From IMG/VR virus record IMGVR_UViG_3300027764_000018, positions 1 through 32,896 of that record: a DNA stretch of 32,896 bases. One strand, 5' to 3'. Under the pieces are notes generated by a model. That model saw only the letters and a list, made by a program, of their open reading frames with translations. It did not search any database and was not told the origin of the DNA. How positions within the stretch are numbered: the stretch's first letter is position 1; the number at the start of each line of letters is the position of its first letter. Position numbers and translations under genes: made by a program. Of the stretch, positions 443 through 10,944 are shown piece after piece. Source of the DNA: a virus. Its lineage: Duplodnaviria > Caudoviricetes.

Positions 443-472
443 GGCCGCTCAAACAATAGAGTGAGGTACAAT

Positions 473-1594
473 ATGCAACATAGTAAGATAGTCGGCGGTT
501 CGACCGCCAAACGCGTCATAGCCTGCCCCGGCAGCGTGGCGCTGGTAGACACCGTACCACCAAAGCCCAGCAGCAGCTACGCCGACGAAGGCACGCTCCT
601 GCATGATACTATAGCAACCATATTAGAGCGCGACCTTGACCCGTACAGCATGGTCGGCACGACCTATGAGAAGACCGTGCTGACTGAAGCGTTGGTCGAT
701 GACAAGCTGATACCGGCGCTGCGTGCGCTGGACGAGATAGACCCCAAGGGGGAGATGGAATATGCGGTTGAAAGCAGGGTTGGTTTTGGTGATTTTCTGC
801 CTGACGTTTTTGGTTCTACCGATCTTCTTGGCCGCCTTGGTGATCGAGCGATTGTTCTGGATTGGAAGTTTGGTGATGGCGTGGCTGTCGAAGTCGAGGA
901 AAACAGCCAGCTACTCTTCTACGCTGCGGCGGCTAAACGCACGGCGGATACGGCTTGGGCTTTTAAAGGCGCAAAAGAAGTCGAACTAATCATTGTCCAG
1001 CCACCTTACGTCAAGCGTTGGGTGACAGACCTTGCCCGCGTTGACGCGTTTGAGAAAGAACTTGCCGCAGCCGTCAAGATTGCTTCGCGGCCAGACGCGC
1101 CGTTGGCGTCGGGCGACCATTGCAAGTGGTGTGCGGCAAAGCCTGTCTGTCCTATCATGACGGGTGCTGTAGACCGCGCTCTGAAAGTCAAGCTGGACGC
1201 GCTGCCGATTGACCAGATCGCACACTATCTGGAGCAGGCTCCGCTTATTGAAGGGTTTATCAAGGACTTGCAGCAGATGGCGCACGGACTTCTGGAAGAG
1301 GGACGCAAAGTCCCCGGCTGGAAGCTGGTCAACAAGCGCGCCACAAGACAGTGGACAAATGAAGATAAGGCTGTAGCCTTCCTGACGGGCGTTGGTGTAG
1401 AAGCATGGGGTGACCCCAAGCCGCTGTCGCCAGCCCAAGCGGAAAAGGCTTTGAAGAAAGCCAAGATAGAATTGCCGGCGGACTTAGTTGTCGCCGTCTC
1501 AACAGGCTCTACCCTTGCGCCGGAGAGTGATCCTCGGCCAGCGGTTTTGCAAATCGGACAGACGCTTACCAAAGCTATGTCTAAAATCCAGTAA
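473..1594 (+). CDS. Cas4-like / DUF2800-type PD-(D/E)xK exonuclease
   Basis: Start reassigned to ATG 473 (GAGG RBS at 463-466). Motifs: HS..GGSTAKR..ACPGS, EGTLLH, FGSTD, VLDWKFG, QLLFYA and the C-terminal cluster GDHCKWCAAKPVCP (4 Cys in total, Fe-S-like). Confidence 0.85.
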   Translation: MQHSKIVGGSTAKRVIACPGSVALVDTVPPKPSSSYADEGTLLHDTIATILERDLDPYSMVGTTYEKTVLTEALVDDKLIPALRALDEIDPKGEMEYAVESRVGFGDFLPDVFGSTDLLGRLGDRAIVLDWKFGDGVAVEVEENSQLLFYAAAAKRTADTAWAFKGAKEVELIIVQPPYVKRWVTDLARVDAFEKELAAAVKIASRPDAPLASGDHCKWCAAKPVCPIMTGAVDRALKVKLDALPIDQIAHYLEQAPLIEGFIKDLQQMAHGLLEEGRKVPGWKLVNKRATRQWTNEDKAVAFLTGVGVEAWGDPKPLSPAQAEKALKKAKIELPADLVVAVSTGSTLAPESDPRPAVLQIGQTLTKAMSKIQ

Positions 1595-2570: not shown

Positions 2571-2634
2571 GTGGTGCGAAAGCCGGGGCGACATCCACCC
2601 CGCCCCGGCGAGTAGCGGAAGAGTGAGAACTTCT

Positions 2635-4590
2635 ATGTCTAAATTATGGATTGACTTTGAAACGCGCAGCCGGTGCGACTTACGTAGCCGCGGCGTTTAC
2701 AATTACGCGCAGGACGCCAGCACCGACGTGTTGTGTATGTCCTACGCATTTGATGACGAAGACGTGCGGACGTGGCTCCCCGGTGAGCCTTTCCCGCAAG
2801 CCGTCAAAGACCACAAGGGGCTGGTGTACGCGCACAACGCAGCGTTCGAGCGCCTGATATTCTGGTATGTCCTTCAGGTGGATTTCAAGCTGGAGCAGTT
2901 CTACTGCACCGCAGCGCAAGCCCGCGCCAACTGCGCGCCGGGTAGCCTAGAGGATGTCGGGCGCTTTGCTGGCGCGACCATGAAGAAAGACCATCGCGGC
3001 AGTCAACTGATCCGCCTTCTGTCCATCCCGCAAGCTGACGGCACGTTTCGTGAGGATGCAGGCTTGATGCAGGAAATGGTTGACTATTGCGAACAGGACG
3101 TGCGGGCCATGCGCGCCATCGCGCAGGCGCAGCGTCCGCTGTCGGCTGATGAGTTGGCCGACTATCACGTCAACGAGCGCATCAACGACCGCGGCGTGCT
3201 GCTGGACCGGCCATTGGCGCAGGCAGCGGTGCGCTACGCTGAGACTGAATTGACTGAGATACAGTCCATTGTCGCAGAGGTGACGCACGGCGAGATTAAG
3301 TCCGTCCGCAGCCCGAAGATGAAGGATTGGGTGTTAGCTAGGGTAGGGCCGCAGGCTGTAGCCGTGGCGACCGTGATGAAGGACGGCGTCGAGAAGCTGT
3401 CCATTGACAAGAACGTGCGCGCCAACTTACTTGTGTTGGCAGAGGAGAACCCAGATGAAGTCCCAGCGGAAGTTGCAGAAGTCATCCAGTGCGCGGACGA
3501 TCTGTGGGCATCGTCCGTTGCGAAGTTCCAACGCGCAGCGGCGCTCGCTGATGAGGAAGATTTTCGCGTTAGAGGAGCGTTCGTATTTGCAGGAGGTAGC
3601 GCTACTGGCCGCGCTTCATCATATGGGCTTCAGGTCCATAACTTCCCAAGAAAGTGCGCCGCAGACCCTGCATTAGTGCGGCAGGCTATGGTGCGGGGTC
3701 ACCAGATTGTCCCTGAGTATGGCCGCCGCGTAACCGACGTGCTGAAAGGTATGCTGCGCCCTGCGCTGATGGCCGACAAAGGCAAGCGGCTCATCGTCGC
3801 TGATTGGGCCGCCATCGAAGCGCGGGTGACGCCGTGGGCGTCCAACAGCGTCTTTGGTGCGAACAAGCTGGACATCTTTGCCAAGGGTGAGGATGTCTAC
3901 AAGCACAACGCTATGGCGACCTTCCATGTCGGCTATACCGATGTCAACAACGACCAGCGCCAAATTGGTAAGGTTCAAGAGTTGGCCTGTGGCTTTGCCG
4001 GCGGTGTCGGTGCGTTTGCCAGCATGGGGCGCATCTACGGCCTGATGATGTCAGAGAGCGACGCGAAGCGCATGGTGGACGCATGGCGCAGGGCTAACAA
4101 GTGGGCCGTGCCTTACTGGGCTGGCATTGAAGAAACCTATCTGCGCGCCATGCGGAACAAGGGCCGCGAGTTTAGCGTTGGCCGCATTACATATTTATTT
4201 GACGGACTGCATCTTTGGTATGCCCTTCCGTCTGGCCGTGTGTTATGTTATCCTTTCGCCCGTTTCGACGAGGAAGGCAATCTGACCTACGCGAAGGCTT
4301 CTTGGAAGCCAGCCGCCGACGCGAAAGAATGGCCGAGGGCGCGGCTATGGCGCGGTCTGGCGTGTGAAAACATCACGCAGGCTGTCGCCAACGACTTGCT
4401 GCGTCACGCCTTGCGTCGGTTGGACAACGTAGTGCTGCACATCCACGATGAAATCGTCTTGGAAGTGCCAGAAGATGAAGCCGAAACCGCAGCAGAGCGG
4501 CTGGTGCAGATTATGTGTGAGCCGCCAGCTTGGGCCGAAGGGTTACCCCTAAACGCTGAAGTGGCAATTATGGAACGTTATGGCAAATAA
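2635..4590 (+). CDS. polA: family A DNA polymerase with 3'-5' exonuclease domain
   Basis: ExoI IDFET, ExoII AHNAAFER, ExoIII YCEQDV; TGR motif; motif A ADWAAIEAR; motif B RQIGKVQELACGF; motif C HIHDEIV. Start set to ATG 2635. Confidence 0.96.
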   Translation: MSKLWIDFETRSRCDLRSRGVYNYAQDASTDVLCMSYAFDDEDVRTWLPGEPFPQAVKDHKGLVYAHNAAFERLIFWYVLQVDFKLEQFYCTAAQARANCAPGSLEDVGRFAGATMKKDHRGSQLIRLLSIPQADGTFREDAGLMQEMVDYCEQDVRAMRAIAQAQRPLSADELADYHVNERINDRGVLLDRPLAQAAVRYAETELTEIQSIVAEVTHGEIKSVRSPKMKDWVLARVGPQAVAVATVMKDGVEKLSIDKNVRANLLVLAEENPDEVPAEVAEVIQCADDLWASSVAKFQRAAALADEEDFRVRGAFVFAGGSATGRASSYGLQVHNFPRKCAADPALVRQAMVRGHQIVPEYGRRVTDVLKGMLRPALMADKGKRLIVADWAAIEARVTPWASNSVFGANKLDIFAKGEDVYKHNAMATFHVGYTDVNNDQRQIGKVQELACGFAGGVGAFASMGRIYGLMMSESDAKRMVDAWRRANKWAVPYWAGIEETYLRAMRNKGREFSVGRITYLFDGLHLWYALPSGRVLCYPFARFDEEGNLTYAKASWKPAADAKEWPRARLWRGLACENITQAVANDLLRHALRRLDNVVLHIHDEIVLEVPEDEAETAAERLVQIMCEPPAWAEGLPLNAEVAIMERYGK

Positions 4591-4600
4591 GGAGCAAGCG

Positions 4601-6946
4601 ATGAGTGAGGATCGCATCAAGTTTATCGAATACGTCACTGGTCTAGCCACAGAGAACGGCGAGACGGCGCTATTGCTACGTCAGAAGCCTAAGTATGACC
4701 CTGATGGTAACATCATCTACCATGCTGACGGCGTGCCATCGGCTACCTTCCCTGCGTTCATGCCTGACAAGGCGCGCATAAAGGAAGGCGAGTCTTGGTA
4801 TGTCAACACAGGCGCGTTCATCGTTGACCGCTTTGTTGACGGCAAGCCAGCAGCCAAGAGCAGCAACGTCGAATACGTTCTGTTCATGATGCTGGACGAC
4901 GTTGGCACGAAGTCTAAGACGCCGCCGCTTGAGCCGACATGGGTGCTGGAAACCAGCGAAGGTTCGTTCCAGTGGGGCTACGCGTTCAGCGAACAGCCAC
5001 GCAAGGGCGACTTCTGCGCTGCCATCAAAGCCATCGCGGATGCAGGCTACACCGATCCGGGCGCGACTAACGCTGTCCGCAACTGTCGTATCCCCGGCAG
5101 CATCAACATGAAGCGTGGCCGCGGCAACTTCCCTGCACGGCTGGTCGAGTTTCACCCAGAGCGTGAATACACACTGGATGAGATATGCAATGCGCTAGGC
5201 GTCACGCCGGAAGAAGGCGACACAGCCGACTATAAGGCGGTGCTGCTGCGCGACACAGGACAGGACAACGTCCTTGCATGGCTTAACGAAAACAGCCTTG
5301 TTCTTAGCGCGCCTAACGCTGACGGCTGGTGCGCTATCGTGTGCCCTAACCACGCGGAACACAGCGACGGCATGATTGAGGCGCGCTACAAGCCGCTGGA
5401 TCGTTCGTTCTGCTGCTACCACGGCCATTGCCAAGTCTTAGATAGCCGCACGTTTCTTGATTGGGTAGCCAATGAAGGTGGCCCGAAGGTGACGCCTGGA
5501 TTGCGTGACGAACTAATCGCTGAACGCATGGCGTCGATGATGGACAAAATATTGCCTACCGAAGCGTTTCCCGATGAGGCCGCAGCGCGTGTGCGTGAGG
5601 TCGAAAAGAAAGAAGCAGGACGGCTGGAACAAAACGAATGGTTCGAGCGTTTCGCTTATATCCAGTCCGATGACTGCTACTTTGACATGGTCACACGTCA
5701 AGAGATAGCCCGCAACGTCTTTAACGCGTTGTTCCGTCACGTTGACTGCCGTTCTATCCACAAGAAAACGCAGCGCGTGCAGTCATCCATCTATTTCGAC
5801 GAGCGCCGTCAGGATCGCGGCGCACCTGCGCTGTCGGCTGTGACGTTCGCCGCTGGCGATGACGTGCTGGTGACGCGTGACGGGCTGGTCTACGGCAACC
5901 GCTGGACAAACGCGCGCCCTGACGTGTCGGGCAGCGACGCAATTGCCGACCATGACGTTGAGCCTTGGCTAGAGCATTGCCGCAATCTGGTCGCGGATGA
6001 CGCCGAATTAGACCACATCCTTAACGCTATGGCGTTCAAGATACAGAACCCACACATTAAGATTAACCATGCCATCCTGATCGGCGGCGATGAAGGCGCA
6101 GGCAAGGATAGTATGTTCCAGCCGTTCCTGTGGGCGCTGGGTGGTAAGCACTGGCGCAATCGGTCAGTCATTGAGGCCGGCGGCTTGGACAGCCAGTGGG
6201 GCTACGCGCTTGAGGCTGAAGTTGTCATCCTGAACGAATTGAAGGAGCCAGAGGCACGCGAACGTCGCGCTATGGCTAACAAGCTGAAGCCGCTCATCGC
6301 TGCGCCACCTGAAACGCTGTCGGTCAACCGCAAGGGGATGCACCCTTATGAGTTGGTCAACCGCCTGATGGTTGTTGCTTACACTAACGATCCGCTGCCT
6401 ATCACGCTACCTACGCAAGACCGCCGCTGGTTCTGCGTATGGACGCGCGCGCCGCGTATGACAGCACCAGCAGCTAAGGCGCTGTGGGGCTGGTATGAGA
6501 ATGGCGGCTATGAGAAGTGCGCCGCTTGGCTGCACCAGCGCGACGTGTCGGCGTTCAACCCTGCCGCTGCACCACCAGTGACCGAATGGAAGCTGAACAT
6601 GGTCGAACATGGCATGAGCGTAGCAGAAAGCTATTTGGTAGACTTGATGCGCGCGAAGTCGGGCGTGTTTGCCGATGGTGTCATTGGTGGGCCGTTCCAT
6701 CGTATCTGCGATGCGTTGGCGATCAACGTCCCTGCTGGCGTGAAGATACCGCAGGCGGCGCTGCTTCATGCGTTGAAGGAAGCTGGTTGGGTTGACATGG
6801 GGCGCATAGGTTCAACTGAACTGCCAACCAAAAAGCACATCTTTGTCGCGCCTGATATTGTTAAGATGCACAGCAAGTCTGACTTGCGCCGCATGGCGGA
6901 CGAACTGCCTAAGCCAAACACAATGTCAAATTTAGGTAAGAATTGA
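4601..6946 (+). CDS. RepB-like primase fused to a Zn finger and SF3 (DUF5906/NrS-1-like) helicase
   Basis: MLDDV, LETSEGSFQWGY and RIPGSINMK (RepB'-type AEP); CPNHAEH...CYHGHC; Walker A GDEGAGKD, Walker B ILNEL, sensor YTN and DRRW. Start ATG 4601 after TAAGGAG. Confidence 0.88.
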   Translation: MSEDRIKFIEYVTGLATENGETALLLRQKPKYDPDGNIIYHADGVPSATFPAFMPDKARIKEGESWYVNTGAFIVDRFVDGKPAAKSSNVEYVLFMMLDDVGTKSKTPPLEPTWVLETSEGSFQWGYAFSEQPRKGDFCAAIKAIADAGYTDPGATNAVRNCRIPGSINMKRGRGNFPARLVEFHPEREYTLDEICNALGVTPEEGDTADYKAVLLRDTGQDNVLAWLNENSLVLSAPNADGWCAIVCPNHAEHSDGMIEARYKPLDRSFCCYHGHCQVLDSRTFLDWVANEGGPKVTPGLRDELIAERMASMMDKILPTEAFPDEAAARVREVEKKEAGRLEQNEWFERFAYIQSDDCYFDMVTRQEIARNVFNALFRHVDCRSIHKKTQRVQSSIYFDERRQDRGAPALSAVTFAAGDDVLVTRDGLVYGNRWTNARPDVSGSDAIADHDVEPWLEHCRNLVADDAELDHILNAMAFKIQNPHIKINHAILIGGDEGAGKDSMFQPFLWALGGKHWRNRSVIEAGGLDSQWGYALEAEVVILNELKEPEARERRAMANKLKPLIAAPPETLSVNRKGMHPYELVNRLMVVAYTNDPLPITLPTQDRRWFCVWTRAPRMTAPAAKALWGWYENGGYEKCAAWLHQRDVSAFNPAAAPPVTEWKLNMVEHGMSVAESYLVDLMRAKSGVFADGVIGGPFHRICDALAINVPAGVKIPQAALLHALKEAGWVDMGRIGSTELPTKKHIFVAPDIVKMHSKSDLRRMADELPKPNTMSNLGKN

Positions 6947-6972
6947 CAACTGATATCAGGTGATGATATACT
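6943..6972 (+). promoter_or_regulatory. strong sigma70 promoter with extended -10
   Basis: TTGACA(6943-6948)-18 nt-TATACT(6967-6972), with TG at 6964-6965 (TGnTATACT). No ORF follows before the terminator. Confidence 0.75.
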
Positions 6973-6976
6973 TTTC

Positions 6977-7062
6977 GGGTCGGTGACATTCTGCTAGCCC
7001 CTCTGGCAATGCTCTGCTGACCCTCTAAGCCCCCTGCGTCCTCACTCCGCAGGGGGCTTTTT
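6977..7062 (+). ncRNA. candidate two-hairpin small regulatory RNA (~86 nt)
   Basis: Bounded by a promoter and an intrinsic terminator. Hairpin 1: GGGTCGG(6977-83)/CTGACCC(7017-23) with inner TGCTAG/CTGGCA and loop CCCCT. Hairpin 2: 12-bp stem with loop TCCTCACTC. Confidence 0.65.
7027..7062 (+). terminator. rho-independent terminator at the convergence of the replication and early operons
   Basis: Perfect 12-bp stem AAGCCCCCTGCG/CGCAGGGGGCTT ending in a T5 run. Confidence 0.85.
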
Positions 7063-7070
7063 AATATCTG

Positions 7071-9528: not shown

Positions 9529-9803
9529 GCGTCTACTTCTGCTGGCTGGTGGTGAGACGCTAGGGCGTCCCAATCGACGCTGTTCAGGTCAAGCATATCC
9601 CATATGAAACCTGCTGTTGTGCTATCGCGTCCGATTAGGTCGTAAACATATTCTTCCACCATATCGCGGCAAAAGTCGGCAGTAATGATTGGGTTATATG
9701 GATTGCGCGAATCTTCAGCCATCTCTGCCCATATATCGTTGAACCAAAGGCCGACTGTCCAAGTGGCGGGATTGCGCCATCCGTTGCAAGTATTGTCTAT
9801 CAT
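9525..9803 (-). CDS. acidic early protein (DUF7249-like, NGW.N..TW motif)
   Basis: CNGWRNPATWTVGLW N-terminus and VDWDALA C-terminus; AGGAG RBS. Confidence 0.75.
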   Translation of the reverse strand: MIDNTCNGWRNPATWTVGLWFNDIWAEMAEDSRNPYNPIITADFCRDMVEEYVYDLIGRDSTTAGFIWDMLDLNSVDWDALASHHQPAEVDA

Positions 9804-9870
9804 AGTATCTCACTCCTGTTGTTGGCACTAGCGCCAGCCTCGCGGCGGATTGCTCCGCCGTCCGGTGGTG

Positions 9871-10188: not shown

Positions 10189-10220
10189 TTTATGTTACTC
10201 CATTTCATTGTTGATACCCT

Positions 10221-10249
10221 CTTATCTACCCTCAAACATAGCCTGTCAA
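10221..10249 (-). promoter_or_regulatory. probable leftward early promoter
   Basis: Perfect TTGACA on the minus strand (10249-10244). The -10 is weak (GATAAG at 17 nt). Confidence 0.4.
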
Positions 10250-10298
10250 CAACAAAATGTGTTGCAGATAAAAAAAGTTGTGTTGGTGAAAATAAATC

Positions 10299-10307
10299 TG
10301 TGGATAA
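10299..10307 (-). promoter_or_regulatory. perfect DnaA box (TTATCCACA)
   Basis: TGTGGATAA on the + strand, next to the repeat cluster. Confidence 0.5.
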
Positions 10308-10329
10308 CTATTTATGGGGCGATTGGCGA

Positions 10330-10646
10330 GTTAGGCTATTTGTTAGGCTATTAAATAAGGCCAAATGACTATTTTTAAACGGCAGATTTCCGCGGCTTTG
10401 AGAGGGGGTTAGGCGGTTTAGGCTATTGGTTGTTAAGTTAGTGATGAAATGATATAATTAACCTATATGGTTATGATATAGTGTTACAAATGTTTTCACG
10501 GCAACTGAAAACCGATAGCCTAAATAGCCTAAATGACCTAACTTGCCCTCTAACTTTACGCTAACGTAAAGCCACCACTCGCCCATGCAAATCGCTACGC
10601 AATCATTTCATCAGCGACTTGTTATCTCATAGCCTAGATAGCCTAA
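10330..10646. repeat. inverted clusters of ATAGCCTAA repeats (iteron-like; putative origin)
   Basis: TTAGGCTAT at 10331, 10343 and 10418. ATAGCCTAA at 10515, 10524 and 10638, with variants at 10533 and 10629. AT-rich centre between the two clusters. Confidence 0.75.
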
Positions 10647-10944
10647 CTAATAATGGTTCGCATTAAGCCAGCCAGCCAGCAATATGTTTTTTCCAATTCG
10701 CGCGATCGCGCAAAGGGAAAGGCCATTTCTATTCCAGCAGGAACAAAAGCAGAACGCTAATCTCTACGCTGCACTGCACAAAGCTGCGCTGCTGCCAGCC
10801 AGTTGCTGAATGCAAATTCCGACAAATTTCCGAGGCCGCCCCCTAGGGCCGACGGTCGGGCCGTTGTCAGTGACAGGGATCGCAAACAATTTTTATTTTT
10901 TTTATTATTTGTAGATGCAAAAAAGCCACCCGCATCAAAGCCTG

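Follow-up and report, generated by a model that had tools for sequence, protein, structure and literature searches.

Does the short unit without an open reading frame (ORF) that lies behind the primase gene of the viral record IMGVR_UViG_3300027764_000018 encode a small RNA (sRNA), and would such an RNA act on the phage's own replication genes? We examined this in the window, by which we mean the whole 32,896-nucleotide (nt) stretch of DNA analysed; it covers most of a phage genome (virus record, 88% complete). The original prediction described a promoter, a two-hairpin fold, a U-run and four complementary sites at gene starts, and re-computation returned all of these at the same positions. 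We consider it probable that the unit specifies a trans-encoded antisense RNA that would repress translation by loop–loop kissing at the starts of the phage's own replication genes, with primase as its primary target. We read the element as a plus-strand RNA that pairs with these starts because of its conservation, the synonymous freezing of the primase start, compensatory change between loop and target, and the strand asymmetry of the stems.

The unit opens with TTGACA (6943-6948) and TATACT (6967-6972), which are separated by an 18-nt spacer with a TG extension and agree with 11 of 12 consensus positions (Table 1). The sequence from 6977 to 7064 folds at -45.9 kcal/mol (z = -7.46), a stability that none of 200 shuffled sequences equalled. 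The top of its second hairpin is almost the reverse complement of a hairpin at the primase start, whose loop (4603-4610) bears the complement of the predicted seed across codons 1-4. The heptamer GAGTGAG, part of this complement, occurs at 459, 2621 and 4603 on the plus strand and, on the minus strand, at 9815-9809 and in the seed loop itself. A count of this motif had been proposed as a check; the total of five does not exceed chance (mean of 2.43 in shuffled sequence, with five copies or more in 11 of 100 shuffles), but its placement is non-random, as all four copies outside the loop sit at gene starts. For comparison, 7474 7-mers have at least four copies in the window, and only two of them have at least four at starts, the other one containing ATG. 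Ranked by duplex energy with the loop, the four sites take places 1-4 among 43 candidate starts (-15.0 to -10.7; next -7.7). The impression that late-gene starts lack the element was correct (0 of 4 sites at late genes), and the chance of all four sites falling among the 16 early starts of 40 is 0.02.

To place the element in a comparative frame, loci were gathered by primase similarity from viral, metagenome and genome collections. The 436 loci plus the window gave 296 with the whole primase gene and both flanks (truncated loci were excluded from the counts). From these came 202 different coding sequences, which a threshold of 95% protein identity reduced to 131 representatives. Sixty-nine representatives with 67-98% primase identity to the window form one clade, the in-group, and the remaining 62, at 53-64%, form the outgroup. 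A script blind to loop sequence then picked the strongest U-tailed hairpin after each primase stop. The loop of this hairpin pairs with the primase start region by 6-9 Watson–Crick pairs in 69/69 in-group representatives. Of the outgroup, 28 representatives had no U-tailed hairpin; in the remaining 34 the loop formed 2-6 pairs, for the most part AT-rich and scattered in position. A YUNR motif is found in 69/69 in-group loops, although this four-letter degenerate motif is weak taken alone. In the stem of hairpin 2, 9 of the 12 pairs vary on both sides (42 sequences; 0 of 500 shuffles) around an unchanging loop; relatedness inflates such counts, yet slid controls score lower. A covariance model, R1, built without the window, matches it at 7004-7063 with 56.1 bits and scores 30.6-56.1 bits for 9 of 10 in-group sources, in-group L359 reaching only 18.9, and a search with R1 produced no convincing outgroup member (best 23.4 bits). 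The expectation that loop and targets evolve together was borne out by this alignment across relatives, in which the loop is conserved on a covarying stem and loop and target change in concert in a few lineages. Cultured and GenBank phages gave a single weak, unrelated blastn match to the element region, and the best primase relative among them, 53% identical, is without the element. Of 13 RNA sequencing runs, each with a small share of the sequence words, the four examined contained fragments of relatives as assembled contigs, a form that carries no information on RNA ends, strand or level. We also observed a similar terminator in the sister clade of the in-group (L132:8344-8413, L263:7303-7388), whose loop could pair with that clade's own primase start via two G-U pairs; it has a weak model score (18.8 bits) and no promoter pattern, and is possibly a diverged family member.

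The complementary sites themselves are conserved to unequal degrees. At the primase start, codons 2-4 are each written with a single codon in 67/67, 69/69 and 67/67 of the sequences bearing the conserved residue; of the 390 remaining conserved columns, just 3 reach 98% or more. A target hairpin of at least 4 base pairs (bp), which also covers the start codon, is present at 41 of 44 distinct primase sites (8% with shuffled flanks). The site in the polA position, after the putative ssb gene, occurs in 47/49 in-group and 0/36 outgroup loci and passes to whichever gene is inserted there; among 31 distinct cases, 28 form a hairpin with 4 bp or more (shuffled flanks 20%), and the stem sequences differ between clades. 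These stems were counted by script rather than by alignment, which was out of register between clades. A site at the nuclease start is found in 21/32 in-group and 0/21 outgroup loci. Sites at early genes on the minus strand occur in 22 of 29 close genomes (41 sites), in 0/17 distant in-group members and in 1/36 of the outgroup, and this confinement to the close clade points to a later addition or one driven in part by Shine–Dalgarno (SD) function. Other occurrences of AGTGAG 3-12 nt before an ATG number 94/161 and 26/68 in the in-group and 4/86 in the outgroup. The four targets, first listed alike, hold up as complementary sites but are unequal, primase alone being universal. L212, L221 and L357 carry an additional seed complement upstream of primase, at 14-18 nt from the ATG, where it overlaps the SD and the stop codon upstream.

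Loop and target also change together. ATTGAG replaces AGTGAG at the primase site of L220 (also L590) and of L389, turning Ser into Ile, and the loop bears the matching change. On a primase tree of 60 sequences, with the close clade thinned by half, L220/L590 and L389 are successive sister branches of the window's clade, and two concerted changes are required. The polA site of L389 is altered in the same way as the primase site, within its hairpin. L112, with a displaced start codon, shows a further change at the edge that is common to loop and site. For each of four loops tested, the cognate target gave the best or joint-best duplex. A scan for non-AGT variants of the primase start turned up only the L220/L590 lineage. 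These results bear on one alternative, that the element is an ordinary terminator between convergent operons, the motif an SD variant and the complementarity a functionless relic of an inverted duplication. Although the total motif count is not above chance and the near reverse complementarity of hairpin 2 and the primase start hairpin fits a duplication origin, we give this account next to no credence in view of the invariant loop on a covarying stem, the synonymous freezing within the primase coding sequence, the concerted changes and the missing motif at outgroup starts (0/36 post-ssb, 0/21 nuclease).

Concerted change would be expected both from RNA pairing and from a protein that recognises one loop on the two strands; stem wobbles can tell them apart. 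Counted on the plus strand, G-T and A-C pairs stand at 7:1 across 48 distinct copies of hairpin 2, at 35:0 across 40 distinct short forms of hairpin 1, and at 3:0 for the primase hairpin. The plus strand folds more stably in 61 of 78 cases, and the U-run lies on it (6.8 vs 3.1 of 8). Wobble asymmetry, stability and U-run therefore place complementary loops on same-sense molecules, as pairing requires, which in turn disfavours both a decoy and a priming function. A protein repressor that binds AGUGAG hairpin loops at gene starts, with a convergent minus-strand transcript as its decoy, would find targets shaped like protein operators, small hairpins with a conserved loop, and a shift in its specificity would also change all sites together. 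We nevertheless think such a protein improbable: plus-strand stems tolerate G-T and not A-C, promoter and U-run are on the plus strand, a loop change in L379 keeps pairing by G-U and would break a same-sense copy, and Pfam and PHROGs scans recognised no RNA-binding repressor, though many small genes are unannotated. The minus-strand decoy that the original prediction had offered as its alternative is thus disfavoured by the G-U strand asymmetry.

The same asymmetry bears on replication priming. ssiA and ssiB of RSF1010 are single-stranded DNA priming signals, and GTG is a triplet that serves as a primase recognition site. The primase here carries a RepB_primase domain, the motif includes GTG and its copies flank the primase gene on opposite strands, all of which would suit hairpins that are priming signals for a RepB'-like primase and not RNA elements. 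Yet the sites follow translation starts, including those of inserted genes that inherit the post-ssb site, GTG is absent in the ATTGAG lineages, the loops on one strand are complementary and not identical, and a priming site has no need of a promoter. A priming function accordingly ranks with the least plausible explanations, even below a protein repressor.

Pairing of RNAs leaves the question of whether the loop acts from a separate molecule. The pattern TTG-N18-TG.TA is present in 61/69 in-group and 0/62 outgroup representatives; in the closest clade the -35 element overlaps the primase stop codon, and in clades with 67-75% identity the promoter architecture lies inside the last primase codons at a similar distance to hairpin 1. 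The main rival is action in cis, in which the nuclease-ssb-polA-primase mRNA, once complete, would fold its 3'-terminal loop, that of the terminator, back onto its own starts and the promoter would be secondary. A read-through mRNA would share the terminator and, judged by folding, keep both hairpins; the covariation evidence fits cis pairing equally well; and the L220/L590 lineage is without a clear promoter, with primase as the sole start that has a site in two complete genomes. The promoter, however, is held at a fixed distance from hairpin 1 in the same 61 representatives even under coding constraint, and the 41 minus-strand sites in 22/29 close genomes are out of reach in cis. We therefore regard cis action as unlikely, while it may coexist with action in trans. 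A DNA-pattern scan for promoters inside coding sequences gave mostly chance matches, and with the start-variant scan 20 of 163 loci encoded primase. The last position of the -10 element is T in only 14/66 promoters; elsewhere the share is 90-99%, as against 30-43% in alphaproteobacterial promoters (PMC7703639). This low value resembles alphaproteobacterial promoters and is a hint to the host, not an identification. The close matches that GTDB returned are on short contigs, assigned to bins from unrelated phyla.

A second contact may come from hairpin 1. Most relatives have a short form of it, with a UGCUC(C) loop that complements the primase SD region; in L358, L359 and L363, loop 1 and SD differ together. 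Contact between loop 1 (UGCUCC or C-rich) and the primase SD is possible, if weakly supported. A strict two-loop model for all members was rejected, as loop 1 mismatches the primase SD in L081, L088, L101, L106, L112, L220 and L388. The long hairpin 1 of the window (6977-7023), found in two branches of the close clade, resembles a tandem duplication of the short one, and in relatives such as L001 hairpin 1 could switch between a short and a long fold.

Several observations weigh against antisense action in trans at multiple starts. The strict promoter pattern is missing in 8/69 representatives, and L106 and L220 have no clear promoter of any kind. The loops of L106, L205 and L357 mismatch the target at the edge, with 6 bp left; the post-ssb site is mismatched in L363 and absent from L220, and primase alone among the starts carries a site in two complete genomes of the L220 type. 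Eleven of 32 nuclease starts have no site, a stem of 4 bp or more forms at just 1 of 20 nuclease sites, and the motif's likeness to an SD could explain part of its nuclease and minus-strand occurrences. Compensatory events number only 2-3, and co-change of polA is limited to one phage lineage. Because the in-group is one clade, presence in it and absence from the outgroup count as a single evolutionary event. Pairing of loop 1 with the SD averages 5.3 bp against 4.9 bp (1.6% of permutations) among genomes that are not independent, and in the window's own fold the UGCUC motif, which is loop 1 in short-form relatives, is paired and a C-rich loop is exposed instead. The direction of regulation, repression, is assumed from the position of the sites. 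With these points taken into account, the predicted trans-antisense function is well supported by the comparative evidence.

If so, the unit's own promoter would yield an RNA of 60-90 nt (61-76 nt in most relatives, about 86 nt in the window), the terminator loop of which would kiss the hairpin over the primase start codon, aided by the YUNR motif, with similar kissing or pairing at the sites before polA and nuclease. Pairing may then extend into the stems: the extended duplex is computed at -22.1 kcal/mol, compared with -5.3 for opening the target; the energy needed to unfold the RNA's own stem does not enter this comparison. With the start codon or SD occluded, ribosome loading would be blocked. 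A host-type promoter would make RNA output proportional to genome copies, so that primase synthesis would drop as genomes accumulate, a brake between early and late phases. The most likely purpose, we infer, is negative feedback on replication proteins in a phage without a recognisable repressor.

The multi-target RNA switch on the replisome that was proposed initially thus survives in its core, a predicted plus-strand RNA whose loop matches replication-gene starts, and loses its immunity variant. Repressor-independent immunity is unsupported: in five complete relatives, the integrase family PF00589 and the HTH_3 domain PF01381 gave 0 matches, other repressor or recombinase families lying outside this search, and no close relative was found inside a long bacterial chromosome contig. 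The lack of integrase and HTH_3 in these relatives favours a feedback brake in lytic growth over immunity. More tentatively, the clade may lack repressor and integrase throughout and possibly practise plasmid-style copy control by one trans RNA, whose terminator loop would kiss hairpins built for it at the starts of primase, polymerase and other early genes, count copies and throttle the replisome; AGUGAG and AUUGAG seeds would then form incompatibility or exclusion groups among co-infecting phages, and a carrier state that needs no protein repressor may be permitted. The phage group, represented by hundreds of database sequences, appears to tie its replication genes to one small RNA, and the cost of keeping the match is visible in frozen codons, a Ser/Ile amino-acid change and a promoter embedded in coding sequence. 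This suggests how repressor-less phages may stop or meter DNA replication; two natural orthogonal seed/target pairs make the idea directly testable, and terminator loops behind primase genes merit a systematic survey.

The surroundings of the element are those of a phage replication module. The plus-strand operon comprises, in order, the DUF2800 nuclease (473), a small ORF, the putative ssb (1908, a label taken from gene position and not from a family match), polA (2635) and the primase-helicase gene. A convergent cluster of small minus-strand genes lies 3' of this operon, and the sRNA element sits between both clusters. The structural genes of the window include P22-like portal and head genes. 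In relative G001, the genome segment that the window does not cover carries a helicase and lysis-type genes. For primase, gene callers chose an in-frame ATG at 4580 that overlaps the end of polA (P0001); we favour 4601 as the real start, judging by SD position and relatives. An 18-nt leader with a ribosome-binding site (RBS) is present twice, at 1588-1605 before the small ORF at 1611 and at 1883-1900 before the putative ssb; this ORF, missing from most relatives, looks as if it was inserted together with a leader copy.

Table 1. Features of the predicted small RNA gene and of its candidate targets, in window coordinates.
Feature	Position	Strand	Remarks
Sigma70-type promoter	6943..6972	+	-35 overlaps primase stop codon; 18-nt spacer; extended -10
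Predicted sRNA of about 86 nt in its long form	6977..7064	+	From fold and covariance-model match; both ends inferred
Hairpin 1	6977..7023	+	C-rich loop in the window's long form
Hairpin 2, intrinsic-terminator-like stem and U-run	7027..7062	+	12 bp; stem 7027-7059
Seed loop	7039..7047	+	YUNR motif inside
Primary target, primase start	4588..4615	+	SD 4588-4594; 5-bp hairpin 4598-4602/4611-4615
Second target, before polA (first gene after ssb)	2617..2637	+	Hairpin shows seed complement 7 nt before ATG
Third target, DUF2800 nuclease RBS	459..475	+	No conserved hairpin
Fourth site, RBS of DUF7249-like early gene	9801..9816	-	Site class limited to closest clade
Primase-helicase gene, target and upstream neighbour of the sRNA	4601..6946	+	RepB_primase and DUF5906 domains

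Further features were seen along the window. A GC-rich hairpin without a U-run (2582-2609), between the putative ssb and the polA target hairpin, is kept with altered sequence in relatives and may serve in processing or stabilisation. Inverted repeats, all short and with the pattern CA(A/T)C-N6-8-G(T/G)TG, are found inside or close to the nuclease promoter (418-432), ahead of the minus-strand cluster (10250-10264) and within the spacer of the sRNA promoter (6947-6962); the last is perfect in many relatives, similar matches also occur in coding regions, and a possible role is that of operator. A stretch of about 700 nt (10189-10914) that separates the minus-strand cluster from the terminase genes has no long ORF; it contains short repeats and a promoter-like site (10430-10458) and is a candidate origin or packaging region. 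In L389, polA is interrupted by an insertion (about 1226-2050) that resembles an intein or HNH element.

How does the predicted RNA compare with known systems? A search of Rfam returned nothing at gathering level, only sub-threshold STnc180 and ar14 scores. A literature search that included few subscription papers gave no description of the family. Six motifs were unmatched in three supplementary files of Fremin et al. 2023 (PMC10690425), of which further supplements could list the motif. In the accessible text of a recent review (PMC12197685), phage sRNAs act mostly on lysis–lysogeny regulators, host genes, and structural or lysis genes, and the word 'primase' appears 0 times.

Phage immunity RNAs offer partial parallels. 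The c4 RNA of P1/P7 (RF01695, PMC2864571) carries short complements in loops that block translation near the RBS, targets an antirepressor mRNA and maintains lysogeny (PMC12197685). Loop-borne short complements and pairing near the RBS are found in silico for the window RNA too, but its targets are primase, polA and nuclease, and it has its own promoter and terminator; the c4 model RF01695 gave no match at E <= 1 in the window, nor at E <= 5 in six loci, one of which is the window's record. The P4 CI RNA is processed from its target transcript and causes premature transcription termination via flanking seqA and seqC (PMC4825925). Like CI, the window RNA would place a phage's own replication genes under RNA control through short pairing sites; it differs in having its own promoter pattern, in its distance from the sites (2.4 kb to the main one, which lies upstream, and 2.8 kb to the next nearest) and in sites that extend over start codons and RBSs.

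Antisense RNAs that control plasmid copy number are encoded in cis, with full complementarity to their target. Those of R1 (CopA), pIP501 and pMV158 use loop–loop kissing with a YUNR motif (PMC4485353). The window RNA resembles them in its YUNR loop, its predicted kissing and the predicted repression of a replication-initiation protein, and its loop variants would define specificity groups as theirs do; in contrast, it lies on the same strand as primase and downstream of it, and has a 6-9-nt seed and several targets. The alpha-r14/cuckoo/NfeR1 sRNAs (RF02344) have tandem hairpins with pyrimidine-rich, anti-SD-like loops (bioRxiv 2025.11.14.688489). Tandem hairpins are shared, and four relatives score sub-threshold on RF02344 (22.6-33.1 vs 58.8 bits); the CCUCCUCCC loop that defines the family in each hairpin is nonetheless missing, the two loops of the window RNA differ from each other, and loop 2 is specific for the phage motif. 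Judged by these features, membership of the predicted RNA fails for the c4, P4 CI, plasmid copy-control and alpha-r14/cuckoo families.

The closest mechanical precedent is OxyS/fhlA of Escherichia coli, in which a terminator loop kisses the translation initiation region of the target and a second loop adds contact (PMC11979758). Terminator-loop kissing at a start region is predicted for the window RNA too. OxyS is a host stress sRNA without sequence relation to the window RNA (no Rfam match), whereas the window RNA is phage-encoded, sits behind its main target and would act on the phage's own replication genes. With its own promoter, an intrinsic terminator, a short seed and separate target loci, all found in silico, the predicted RNA has the features of the trans-encoded sRNA class.

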